A stretch of DNA of 64,000 nt, taken from assembly GCF_003334315.1 (NCBI RefSeq), contig NZ_QOWR01000013.1, one strand, 5' to 3'. Made by a program: the position numbers and the translations under genes. Numbering within the stretch: position 1 is the stretch's first letter; each line of letters starts with the position of its first letter. Shown one piece after another: positions 23,009 to 26,766 of this stretch. The notes beneath the pieces were generated by a model. The model was not told the DNA's origin. It saw only the letters and a program-made list of their open reading frames with translations, and searched no databases. Origin of the DNA: Escherichia coli. Lineage in GTDB: Bacteria > Pseudomonadota > Gammaproteobacteria > Enterobacterales > Enterobacteriaceae.

Positions 23009-23800
23009 TTAGAGATCAATTTCCTGCCGTTTTACCTGTTGCCAGACTTCTTCCATTGTTTCGAGGTCAACACCTGTCATTTCCAGTCCACGCGCGGCAA
23101 CAATACGCTCCACTTCGCGAAAACGACGCTCGAATTTTTCGTTCGCTTTTTGCAATGCGATTTCTGCTTTCGTCCCTAAATGGCGAGCCAGATTAACCGT
23201 GGCAAACAGCAGGTCCCCCATTTCCTCCTCCAGTTTAGCCTGGTCGACAACAGCCTGCCGCGCTTCGTACATCACCTCGTCGATCTCTTCGTAGACTTTA
23301 TCGACTACCGGACCAAGCGTCGTCCAATCGAAGCCAACGTTGGCGCAACGTTTCTGGATTTTTTGCGCACGCATTAAAGCCGGTAAACTACGAGGAATAT
23401 CGTCCAGCGCCGAATGCTGCGCTTTCTGCGCGCGCTCTTCGGTTTTGATTTGCTCCCAACGGGCAAGCACTTCACTACTGTTTTCGGCAGAACTGTCAGC
23501 AAAAACATGCGGATGGCGACGCTCTAATTTATCGCTAATCGCAGCGCAAATATCATTAAAGTCAAAGCGCCCTTCTTCCTGAGCCATTTGCGCGTAAAAC
23601 ACCACCTGGAACAGCAGATCGCCGAGTTCACCGCGCAGATCGTCAAAATCTTCACGGGCGATGGCGTCCAGCACTTCGTAGGTTTCTTCAAGGGTGTAAG
23701 GCGCAATGGTGGCAAATGTCTGCTCTTTATCCCACGGGCAGCCGTTTTCCGGATCGCGCAGGCGCTGCATAATAGTGAGCAAACGGTCGATTTGATTCAT
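23009..23800 (-). CDS. mazG: nucleoside triphosphate pyrophosphohydrolase
   Basis: 263-aa ORF recognised as MazG. Confidence 0.95.
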   Translation of the reverse strand: MNQIDRLLTIMQRLRDPENGCPWDKEQTFATIAPYTLEETYEVLDAIAREDFDDLRGELGDLLFQVVFYAQMAQEEGRFDFNDICAAISDKLERRHPHVFADSSAENSSEVLARWEQIKTEERAQKAQHSALDDIPRSLPALMRAQKIQKRCANVGFDWTTLGPVVDKVYEEIDEVMYEARQAVVDQAKLEEEMGDLLFATVNLARHLGTKAEIALQKANEKFERRFREVERIVAARGLEMTGVDLETMEEVWQQVKRQEIDL

Positions 23801-23870
23801 TGAATTGTCCTGAAAATTGCGGGTCTGTCAGGTGGAAACCTGTGACCAGAATAGAAGTGAGTTAGTAACA

Positions 23871-24206
23871 CTACCCAATCAGTACGTTAATTTTGGCTTT
23901 AATGAGTTGTAATTCCTCTGGGGCAACTGTTCCTTTCTTCGTTGCTCCTCTTGCCCGCCAGGCGATACTTTTTACCTGATCAGCTAACGCTACGCCATCA
24001 CGTTCCTGACCGGATAAAACAACTTCGAACGGATATCCTTTTGATTGCGTTGTACAAGGAACACACAGACACATACCTGTTTTGTTGTTGTACATGAAAG
24101 GACTCAGGACAACAGCTGGACGATGTCCAGCTTGCTCGCTACCTTTTGTCGGGTCAAAATCAACCCAAATCAGATCGCCCATATCGGGTACGTATCGGCT
24201 TACCAT
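23871..24206 (-). CDS. mazF: MazF endoribonuclease toxin
   Basis: 111-aa ORF recognised as MazF; start overlaps the mazE stop. Confidence 0.96.
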   Translation of the reverse strand: MVSRYVPDMGDLIWVDFDPTKGSEQAGHRPAVVLSPFMYNNKTGMCLCVPCTTQSKGYPFEVVLSGQERDGVALADQVKSIAWRARGATKKGTVAPEELQLIKAKINVLIG

Positions 24207-24454
24207 TACCAGACTTCCTTATCTTTCGGCTCTCCCCAGTCGATATTCTCGTGGAGGTTTTCCGGCGTGATGTCGTTGACCAGTTCAGCAAGCGTAAATA
24301 CGGGCTCTTTACGCACTGGCTCAATAATTAATTTGCCATCCACCAGGTCAATCTTCACTTCATCATCAATATTCAGATTGAGCGCCTGCATTAACGTAGT
24401 CGGGATCCGCACCGCCGGTGAATTTCCCCAACGCTTTACGCTACTGTGGATCAT
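24206..24454 (-). CDS. mazE: MazE antitoxin
   Basis: 82-aa ORF recognised as MazE. Confidence 0.96.
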
Positions 24455-24477
24455 AACCCTTTCCTCAAACCGCTATC

Positions 24478-24520
24478 ATATGTAGATACAGTATATATCA
24501 ATCTACATTGTAGATACGAG
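24478..24520 (-). promoter_or_regulatory. mazEF promoter palindrome (autoregulatory operator)
   Basis: TGTAGATACAGTATATATCAATCTACATTGTAGATAC immediately upstream of mazE; inverted TGTAGAT / ATCTACA arms. Confidence 0.6.
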
Positions 24521-24531
24521 CAAATTTCGGC

Positions 24532-26766
24532 CTAACTCCCGTGCAACCGACGCGCGTCGATAACATCCGGCACCTGGTTGAGTTTACCCAGCACGCGCCC
24601 CAGCACTTGCAGGTTGTAAATCTCAATGGTCATGTCGATGGTCGCCAGTTGCTGTTTGGTGTCGCTACGGCTGGCAACGCCAAGCACGTTCACCTTCTCG
24701 TTGGCGAGAATGGTCGTGATATCACGTAACAACCCACTACGATCATTAGCTACCACGCGGACCACCAGCGAATATCCGGCGGAGTAGCTCTCACCCCATA
24801 CCGCGTCAACAATGCGTTCTGGCGCATGGGAGCGCAGTTCCGCCAGTTGTTCGCAATCGGCGCGGTGTACTGAAATACCGCGCCCCTGGGTAATGAAGCC
24901 GACAATCTCATCTCCAGGAATCGGCTGGCAGCAGCGCGCGATGTGGTGCATCAGGTTGCCAACACCTTCGACTACCACGCGACCGTTATCTTTACTGCGG
25001 TTTTGCGGCGTGTAGCTTTTTTGCTGAAGTTGCTTCAGCGCGGCGGCGTCCTGCTCTTCGGCACTCGGCTTATTAAATTGCGATTGCAGGAAGTTCACCA
25101 TCTGATTGAGACGGATATCCCCGCCACCAATCGCCGCCAGCAACTCGTCGACATCATTGAAGTTGTAACGCGGCAGCAGATGTTTTTCTGCTTCTTTCAG
25201 GCTGATCCCCAGATGTTCCAGCTCGTCGTCAAGGATTTGCCGCCCAGCCAGAATGTTTTTGTCACGGTCCTGTTTACGGAACCAGGCGTGAATTTTCGAA
25301 CGCCCACGGCTGGTTGTGACGTAACCGAGGTTTGGGTTTAACCAGTCACGGCTGGGGTTCGGCTGTTTCTGGGTGATAATTTCAATCTGGTCGCCCATCT
25401 GCAGCTGGTAGGTGAACGGCACAATGCGCCCGCCAATTTTTGCCCCAATGCAGCGGTGTCCGACATCACTGTGGATGTGGTAAGCGAAGTCCAGCGGCGT
25501 TGATCCCGCAGGCAAATCAACGACATCACCTTTCGGCGTAAAGACGTACACTCGGTCGTCAAAGACCTGGCTGCGTACTTCGTCGAGCATTTCGCCGGAA
25601 TCAGCCATCTCTTCCTGCCATGCAATCAGTTTACGCAGCCAGGCAATCCGGTCTTCATGTCCCGAACGTGCGCCGCCAGCAGCCGCGCCCTCTTTATATT
25701 TCCAGTGCGCAGCAACACCCAACTCTGCATCTTCATGCATCTGTTTGGTGCGGATTTGGATCTCAACGGTTTTGCCACCTGGCCCCAGAACCACGGTATG
25801 AATAGACTGATAACCGTTTGGTTTCGGGTTAGCGACGTAATCGTCAAACTCATCCGGCAGGTGGCGATAGTGAGTGTGCACTATCCCCAGTGCGGCATAA
25901 CAATCCTGTAAACGCTCGGCGACAATACGTACCGCACGCACATCAAACAGCTCATCAAAGGCGAGGTTCTTTTTCTGCATTTTACGCCAGATGCTGTAGA
26001 TGTGTTTCGGACGACCATACACTTCCGCTTTAACGCCTTCAGCTTTCATCTCAGCGCGCAGATGACCAACGAACTCTTCGATGTAGTGTTCGCGGTCGAG
26101 ACGCCGTTCATGCAGCAGTTTGGCAATTCGTTTGTATTCGGTTGGATGGAGGTAACGGAAGCAGTAATCTTCCAGTTCCCATTTCAGTTGTCCGATTCCG
26201 AGACGGTTAGCCAGCGGTGCGTAGATGTTGGTACACTCTTTTGCCGCCAGTACACGTTCATCTTCCGGCGCATCTTTTACTTCGCGCAGATGAGCAATAC
26301 GCTCCGCCAGTTTGATGACTACGCAGCGAAAATCATCGACCATCGCCAATAACATCCGGCGAACGTTATCGACCTGTTCGGAGGAAACAGAATCAGTGTG
26401 CGTCGCTTTCAGCTGGCGGATCGCCGCCATATCACGCACGCCGTGAATAAGGTTAACGACCGACTTACCGACGCTCTCACGCAGCACATCTTCGCTGACT
26501 ACGTTGGCATCCGCCAGAGGGAAAAGCAGCGCCGCCCGCAGCGTGTCAATGTCCATACTTAATGTCGAGAGGATCTCCACCATCTCAACACCACGCCACA
26601 ATAACAGACTGGCATCCGGATGCCCCTGCGTCTGTTGCAGACAATACGCCCAGGTTTCGGCTAAGCACTCACACGACTTCTGGCTGGTAATACCCAGACT
26701 TGCGATCCATTTTTCCGGATCAAATTCACCAGCCTTATTGATATGTGCACTTCTTACCGCAACCAT
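24532..26766 (-). CDS. relA: (p)ppGpp synthetase I
   Basis: 744-aa ORF recognised as RelA. Confidence 0.98.
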   Translation of the reverse strand: MVAVRSAHINKAGEFDPEKWIASLGITSQKSCECLAETWAYCLQQTQGHPDASLLLWRGVEMVEILSTLSMDIDTLRAALLFPLADANVVSEDVLRESVGKSVVNLIHGVRDMAAIRQLKATHTDSVSSEQVDNVRRMLLAMVDDFRCVVIKLAERIAHLREVKDAPEDERVLAAKECTNIYAPLANRLGIGQLKWELEDYCFRYLHPTEYKRIAKLLHERRLDREHYIEEFVGHLRAEMKAEGVKAEVYGRPKHIYSIWRKMQKKNLAFDELFDVRAVRIVAERLQDCYAALGIVHTHYRHLPDEFDDYVANPKPNGYQSIHTVVLGPGGKTVEIQIRTKQMHEDAELGVAAHWKYKEGAAAGGARSGHEDRIAWLRKLIAWQEEMADSGEMLDEVRSQVFDDRVYVFTPKGDVVDLPAGSTPLDFAYHIHSDVGHRCIGAKIGGRIVPFTYQLQMGDQIEIITQKQPNPSRDWLNPNLGYVTTSRGRSKIHAWFRKQDRDKNILAGRQILDDELEHLGISLKEAEKHLLPRYNFNDVDELLAAIGGGDIRLNQMVNFLQSQFNKPSAEEQDAAALKQLQQKSYTPQNRSKDNGRVVVEGVGNLMHHIARCCQPIPGDEIVGFITQGRGISVHRADCEQLAELRSHAPERIVDAVWGESYSAGYSLVVRVVANDRSGLLRDITTILANEKVNVLGVASRSDTKQQLATIDMTIEIYNLQVLGRVLGKLNQVPDVIDARRLHGS

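Follow-up and report, generated by a model that had tools for sequence, protein, structure and literature searches.

A three-armed repeat upstream of mazE in an Escherichia coli contig matches the described K-12 mazEF operator base for base

The mazEF promoter region of Escherichia coli K-12 is the closest described counterpart of the locus reported here, and work published since 2001 has covered the element, the protein that binds it, the promoter and the part they play in autoregulation. As related in reviews of Marianovsky et al. (2001), transcription starts from two promoters, P2 and P3, located 13 nt apart, and MazE, and more strongly MazE-MazF, represses both through a sequence termed the 'alternating palindrome'. 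These reviews also describe activation by Fis from a site upstream of the palindrome. Zorzini et al. (2015; PMC4333400) later studied MazE with operator oligonucleotides in ITC, EMSA and NMR experiments. By ITC, the K_D for MazE was 0.6 uM at site 'c' (the tightest), 2.1 uM at site 'b' and ~5 uM at site 'a' (the weakest), the 'cab' fragment contained three MazE sites (n = 3), and unrelated control DNA was bound very weakly; in EMSA, MazF boosted MazE-DNA binding up to a ratio of ~1:1 (PMC4333400). The nomenclature is not uniform, as 'a' denotes the middle arm in the 2001 usage and in reviews but the AT-rich spacer oligonucleotide in the 2015 paper. Likewise, binding to 'a' is the best according to a 2016 review and the weakest in the 2015 ITC table. 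The 2015 names are used below.

Several other systems share components with mazEF. The Kis-Kid (parD) module of plasmid R1 combines, as mazEF does, a MazF-family toxin with an AbrB-type antitoxin, and its operator consists of two unequal palindromic regions over the promoter, the occupancy of which is set by the toxin:antitoxin ratio (summarized in PMC3879964). Compared by this published description, Kis-Kid differs in its half-site sequence, in being plasmid-borne and in having two sites rather than three overlapping ones. The VapB2 operator of Rickettsia felis (PDB 3ZVK) is bound by the same AbrB fold, and the same ATATAT core is read via the N-terminal strand and a hairpin (Zorzini et al.). 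However, the toxin partner there is VapC, a PIN-domain protein, and in the mazEF operator ATATAT is the least conserved element and has the weakest K_D. Cassettes in Klebsiella, Enterobacter, Serratia, Salmonella, Pantoea and Kosakonia (MazE 67–82 % identical) likewise encode an AbrB-type MazE and a PemK/MazF protein, and carry one or two ATCTACA-W-TGTAGAT-like dyads 20–55 nt before the ATG, with a TATAAT-like −10 element between or inside them. Unlike the E. coli locus, none of these cassettes lies by relA, most are in island- or prophage-like surroundings, and two units are present instead of three, at a spacing of 17 or 28 bp.

The DNA analysed here, referred to as the window, is a 64-kb stretch from E. 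coli, and the locus is encoded on its minus strand. In the direction of transcription it comprises relA (24532–26766; GTP diphosphokinase, 744 aa), a 77 bp relA-mazE spacer (24455–24531, between the relA stop codon at 24532–24534 and the mazE ATG at 24454), mazE (24206–24454; AbrB-type antitoxin/repressor, 82 aa; NCBIfam NF007312, 194 bits against a cut-off of 113), mazF (23871–24206; ACA-specific endoribonuclease toxin, 111 aa; NF007386, 227 bits against a cut-off of 120) and mazG (23009–23800; nucleoside triphosphate pyrophosphohydrolase, 263 aa), which is 3′ in the mazE-mazF-mazG transcript. RelA, MazE, MazF and MazG each score above the NCBIfam equivalog cut-off with end-to-end matches. 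The relA stop codon is 10 bp from the upstream arm of the repeat, and the mazE stop and mazF start codons overlap at 24206. The adjacent, full-length antitoxin and toxin ORFs place the pair among type II mazEF modules (AbrB-type antitoxin, PemK/MazF endoribonuclease). A first-pass annotation, made from the letters of the window, had placed relA upstream and mazG downstream of the pair, which holds in the direction of transcription with all genes on the minus strand. It had also taken the operator to confirm that the module is intact. The module is indeed intact, as its full-length ORFs attest, but the operator by itself is no proof of this.

Annotated E. coli chromosomes include some that match the 3.8-kb stretch with 100 % identity, and a match of some extent exists in all 5,426 complete genomes; the RefSeq annotation of the identical genomes agrees on the position of the spacer and on the coding strand of mazE. 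From mazG to relA there are 14 base differences from K-12 MG1655, none of them in the spacer. The 77 bp, the arms, sites a, b and c, the flanking genes and the 5′-end position are thus those of the K-12 P2/P3 operator described by Marianovsky et al. (2001) and Zorzini et al. (2015). While the DNA is without difference, the encoded repressor has T19 in place of A19; MazF is identical to K-12 MazF, and A19T is the sole amino-acid change across relA, mazE, mazF and mazG. The MazE of the window matches the solved structures 1MVF, 1UB4 and 2MRN/2MRU, of which 2MRU is a DNA-docked model.

The repeat search located TGTAGAT at 24481–24487 and 24509–24515 and its complement ATCTACA at 24501–24507. The two outer copies belong to a 9 nt direct repeat, TGTAGATAC, at 24481–24489 and 24509–24517. 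The middle arm forms a perfect 8 nt inverted repeat with the downstream arm (ATGTAGAT/ATCTACAT, 24480–24487 and 24501–24508, with a 13 nt gap) and a perfect 7 nt inverted repeat with the upstream arm (ATCTACA/TGTAGAT, 24501–24507 and 24509–24515, with a 1 nt gap). Thus, the inverted TGTAGAT/ATCTACA repeats reported directly upstream of mazE are real and located as described, yet the relA-mazE spacer contains three arms and not a single pair, the middle arm being complementary to both the upstream and the downstream one. The heptamer is not enriched over the whole 64-kb window (5 copies against 4.4 expected), although 3 of these 5 copies fall within 35 bp at the operator. When any 7-mer is considered, the real window contains a single three-arm layout within ≤40 bp, that of the operator.

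The published oligonucleotides can be placed directly on this sequence. The MazE/MazEF operator fragment 'cab' ('alternating palindrome'), CTCGTATCTACAATGTAGATTGATATATACTGTATCTACATATGATAGCGT, lies at 24471–24520 on the minus strand and matches at 50 of 51 bases, the mismatch being the last base of the oligonucleotide. The shorter oligonucleotides map exactly: 'c' to 24499–24517, 'a' (TTGATATATACTGT) to 24488–24501 and 'b' to 24478–24496. The range originally annotated, 24478–24520, therefore begins where published site 'b' begins and extends to the last position of the published 'cab' fragment. The claim that the palindrome is the autoregulatory operator of mazEF is well founded, given a spacer identical to that of K-12 and the match of the published cab oligonucleotide at 24471–24520. 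By the published ITC, the AT-rich spacer between two of the arms is a further MazE site.

Dyad units were scored as 15-mers against ATCTACA-N-TGTAGAT over 14 positions; all three lie on the minus strand. Unit c, ATCTACAATGTAGAT (ATCTACA-A-TGTAGAT; 24501–24515, −32 to −18), is a perfect 15 bp palindrome scoring 14/14. Unit a, ATATATACTGTATCT (ATATATA-C-TGTATCT; 24484–24498, −15 to −1), lies over the −10 element and scores 10/14; its ATATAT core is at 24493–24498. Unit b, ATCTACATATGATAG (ATCTACA-T-ATGATAG; 24473–24487, −4 to +11), lies over the transcription start and scores 9/14, with a good left half-site and a degenerate right half. The units c, a and b are centred 54, 37 and 26 nt before the mazE ATG. 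Within the 64-kb window a single 15-mer reaches at least 12/14, and this is unit c, whereas 20 reach 10/14 and 110 reach 9/14. Units a and b are therefore weak matches when taken alone, and are credible mainly because they coincide with published sites. From their sequences, sites a and b may be degenerate copies of c. The 'alternating' pattern would then come from one full dyad, c, and the two degenerate dyads after it, a and b, in which one half-site is used again.

The transcription start of the mazE-mazF-mazG(-pyrG) mRNA was transferred from a K-12 capped 5′ end through the identical sequence. SMRT-Cappable-seq (Supplementary Data 2; PMC6131387) lists the operon b2783|b2782|b2781|b2780 with a start at 2,911,368 on the reverse strand, and the use of U00096.3 coordinates in this table was confirmed by the neighbouring pyrG rows. 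The start corresponds to window position 24483 on the minus strand, which is the A of ATCT-A-CA within the downstream arm, 29 nt before the mazE ATG. A mazE promoter mapped elsewhere had been named in advance as a possible refutation of the operator assignment; the K-12 start instead falls within the downstream arm. No entry for the operator region was found in the Cappable-seq supplements. The 5′ UTR is accordingly 29 nt long and starts 5′-ACAUAUG. The mapped mRNA (24455–24483, minus strand) begins 5′-ACAUAUGAUAGCGGUUUGA, and its first three bases, ACA, are the MazF cleavage motif.

The −10 hexamer of the main (P2-type) mazEF promoter is TATACT at 24490–24495 on the minus strand (−12 to −7), with transcription starting 7 nt after it. 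No recognizable −35 element is present, the hexamer at 17 bp spacing being CGTATC, and the mazEF promoter was not called in a sigma-70 consensus scan. The lack of a −35 element and the miss by the scanner are consistent with dependence on an activator but are not proof of it. The scan did return a hit, ATGATA/TATGAT, overlapping the mazE ATG; this was set aside as inconsistent with the mapped 5′ end. A candidate Fis site, GGCCGAAATTTGCTC, is located at 24518–24532 on the minus strand (−49 to −35) and fits a degenerate Fis consensus, in the region to which reviews assign the activator site. However, the window holds 12 copies of this degenerate pattern against 11.1 expected, and because it occurs at chance frequency the assignment of the Fis site is tentative.

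Taken together, the repeats are very probably the mazEF autoregulatory operator, interleaved with its promoter. Binding and repression by MazE and MazE-MazF are drawn from the literature, and the sequence contributes the identity to the studied DNA, the position of the mapped 5′ end, the intact cognate genes and the conservation of the half-site in orthologs. In the proposed mechanism, the 77 bp spacer would present three partly overlapping 15 bp dyads related to ATCTACA-W-TGTAGAT, each dyad unit accepting one dimer of the AbrB-fold N-terminal domain of MazE, and MazF held on the MazE C-terminal tails would strengthen binding to DNA. As the units cover −32 to +11, a layout classically associated with occlusion, their occupancy would exclude RNA polymerase and switch off transcription of mazE-mazF-mazG; promoter occlusion is the probable mode of repression. 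Degradation of MazE, or a large excess of MazF, would clear the sites and let transcription resume.

The published MazE binding was measured with A19 MazE on identical DNA, while the window strain encodes T19. This limits how far the published affinities extend to this strain, as residue 19 is placed on the DNA backbone by the docking model and the allele may alter binding. In the work of Zorzini et al. (2015; PMC4333400), residues 18–20 were set as active residues for docking, and the backbone NH of A19 is described as touching a DNA phosphate. The substitution is in mazE codon 19 (window position 24400), with the operator DNA unchanged alongside. The T19 and A19 alleles are each found on at least 1,000 contigs, and a 61-mer identical to that of the window and carrying the T19 allele is present in 184 of the 4,419 mazEF-bearing complete genomes.

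Orthologs were collected from Klebsiella, Enterobacter, Serratia, Pseudescherichia, Kosakonia, Salmonella, Pantoea and metagenomes. A scan of genome contigs with MazE gave three loci, and the rest were obtained through protein searches and look-ups of the encoding contigs. The resulting set contains 14 MazE proteins of 60–82 % identity with 12 distinct promoters, as two pairs have identical upstream sequence. Every promoter in this set has one or two units scoring at least 11/14, with a spacing of 17 or 28 bp. The 17 bp spacing is found in Klebsiella, Enterobacter, two Serratia, Salmonella and two metagenomic contigs with one common promoter; the 28 bp spacing is found in Pantoea, S. fonticola and Kosakonia. 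The spacing in E. coli, 17 + 11 = 28, thus combines both ortholog arrangements. The third arm is TGTAGATAC in Klebsiella, Enterobacter and Serratia (77–82 % identity) as opposed to GTATCTACA in E. coli. Because the third arm is flipped in the closest orthologs, it is the half-site sequence that is conserved and not the exact 'alternating' topology. The ATATAT core is replaced by GCTAGC or GCCAAC in Pantoea, and is the least conserved part of the operator among MazE orthologs.

A few units carry symmetric double changes, such as ATCAACA-A-TGTTGAT in Proteus and ATATACA-A-TGTATAT. Across 17 distinct units, however, 22 deviations from the consensus are one-sided and 3 are mirrored. The mirrored changes are not enriched in these units (3 observed against 2.0 expected; 3,054 of 10,000 permutations as high), and a proposed enrichment of dyad-preserving double substitutions was dropped on the outcome of this permutation test (31 %). 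As deviations are mostly one-sided, the sequence of the half-site appears to be conserved and not its pairing, with no sign of compensatory evolution. Remoter homologs (38–48 % identity) are encoded by Chimaeribacter and by plasmids of Proteus, Erwinia and E. coli. No related motif was found upstream of the plasmid MazE homologs of ~40 % identity (IncN and Klebsiella plasmids), where CTAATTAG is present instead; these homologs were left out of the motif analysis. As the plasmid homologs lack the motif, the dyad is confined to a sub-clade. Chopra et al. (2013) had described a repeat, coincident with the c and b arms, that is conserved ahead of MazF modules of the AbrB-linked type, so the refinement drawn from orthologs is only partly new.

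None of the 14 orthologous mazEF loci adjoins relA. Their neighbours include anti-restriction, DUF4942, P2 capsid, transposase and RES-Xre genes, and a PemK/MazF gene is located downstream of mazE in each. These contexts fit a self-contained mazEF cassette inserted between relA and mazG in E. coli. Within the species, the operator is present in 4,419 of 5,426 complete genomes, 2,733 of them identical over 91 bp, and the remaining 1,007 lack the whole mazEF and operator cassette; the two classes account for all 5,426 exactly. In genomes without mazEF, such as those of ST131, ABU 83972 and Seattle 1946, the relA-mazG spacer consists of ~57 nt with a 12 bp terminator-like hairpin, followed by a common 38 nt before mazG. 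The dimorphic segment corresponds to window positions 23839–24531; homology ends immediately 3′ of the relA stop codon and is found again from 38 nt before the mazG ATG onwards. Since the break lies at the very end of relA, promoter and operator belong in their entirety to the mazEF cassette, and as the 77 bp spacer is absent along with mazEF, promoter and operator travel with the genes. SNPs in four sampled operator variants are at 24529, 24524, 24474, 24472 and 24457, outside the heptamers and the ATATAT core.

The absence of mazEF from many strains, with relA-mazG as an undisturbed operon, is also stated in a 2020 review. That review cites UTI89 as lacking mazEF, whereas NZ_CP062228.1, which is labelled E. 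coli UTI89, has mazE and mazF annotated at the locus. Either NZ_CP062228.1 is from a different strain or the example in the review is wrong.

A palindrome in this position could in principle be read by its shape. MazE-MazF would then recognize DNA secondary structure, switching between two cruciform or hairpin states, in place of base sequence, an idea that dates from the first description of the 'alternating palindrome'. The perfect complementarity of the middle arm to both outer arms is what such a switch would need, and according to a review of Marianovsky et al. (2001), many mutations in the palindrome left MazEF binding intact, which fits poorly with strict sequence-specific recognition and suggests that structure may outweigh sequence. 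However, as single-stranded DNA the element folds weakly (−4.6 kcal/mol, z = −1.0), with an equally good fold in 33 of 200 shuffles, and the pairing topology of E. coli is not kept in Klebsiella, Enterobacter and Serratia while the half-site sequence is. The 22 one-sided against 3 mirrored deviations, with as many mirrored in 31 % of permutations, likewise give no indication of compensatory evolution, and short linear duplex oligonucleotides bind MazE with micromolar affinity when unrelated control DNA is bound very weakly (PMC4333400). Recognition of structure is thus a quite improbable account of the element. It is less probable still that the palindrome acts primarily at the RNA level, forming a hairpin in transcripts that read through from relA or in antisense aMEF and affecting termination, processing or stability, with the operator role secondary. 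Transcripts initiated at relA do extend into mazE, mazF and mazG, aMEF crosses on the other strand, and the antisense RNA folds somewhat better than shuffles (z = −1.8; 12 of 200). Against this, the sense RNA does not fold better than shuffles (z = +0.2), the arms are not followed by a T-run, no terminator call falls on them, and no Rfam family matches the operator region. The main mazE transcript starts in the last arm and so cannot form the hairpin, and since read-through transcripts exist, termination at the operator would be at most partial. With weak folds, no terminator, no Rfam match and a start in the last arm, both an RNA role and a need for DNA structure are poorly supported.

A chance repeat in an AT-rich intergenic spacer, without function, would be compatible with the lack of heptamer enrichment over the window and with the presence of a three-arm 7-mer locus in 26 of 300 (9 %) dinucleotide-shuffled versions of the 64-kb window. 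Yet shuffling of the 77 bp spacer itself reproduced the three-arm layout in 2 of 20,000 cases, orthologous mazE genes in unrelated genomic surroundings have kept the motif upstream of them, and direct binding data have been published for the identical sequence (PMC4333400). Ortholog conservation and the published binding data effectively refute this possibility, the probability of which is negligible.

Judged by its sequence, then, the feature is the known mazEF operator/promoter, base for base that of K-12, and as such is already known. Because the element has been published since 2001 and the DNA is identical to that of the studied strain, the locus is of little importance beyond its correct annotation. 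The orthologs add a refinement, in that the conserved recognition element is the heptamer half-site and not the ATATAT core, while arm topology and dyad symmetry are not maintained by compensatory change. That the half-site is kept while topology and symmetry are not favours plain sequence-specific operator binding over the idea of a DNA structure. A more extended view, which we hold tentatively and at somewhat less than an even chance, is that the 'alternating palindrome' is a by-product of three overlapping copies of the 15 bp dyad ATCTACA-W-TGTAGAT and not a switching structure. The unit would travel with mazEF as a mobile cassette in a layout that varies with the host (17 bp or 28 bp spacing, the third arm either way, with both spacings in E. 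coli). On the same view, the ATATAT site 'a', the base of the only MazE-DNA structural model, would be the least conserved and weakest of the sites, and A19T could shift the set-point of autorepression.

Transcription across the operator is not limited to the mazE mRNA. Transcripts initiated at relA read through it, as seen in the operons b2784|b2783 and b2784|b2783|b2782|b2781 (SMRT-Cappable-seq, PMC6131387). The equivalent of the antisense RNA aMEF (b4844), described in PMC8749433, was placed at 24166–24565 on the plus strand by alignment of the K-12 RefSeq ncRNA at 2911051–2911450. Its ends lie inside mazF and in the 3′ end of relA, so that mazE and the complete operator are covered. As aMEF crosses the operator on the opposite strand, the operator is transcribed on both strands. 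Two further observations concern the surrounding sequence. A perfect 12 bp GC-rich palindrome, CGACGCGCGTCG, is located at 24548–24559 in the last relA codons, ~30 bp upstream of the operator. In the mazE mRNA, an AUG at +5 begins a short frame of four codons (M-I-A-V), the UGA of which abuts the Shine-Dalgarno region of mazE.
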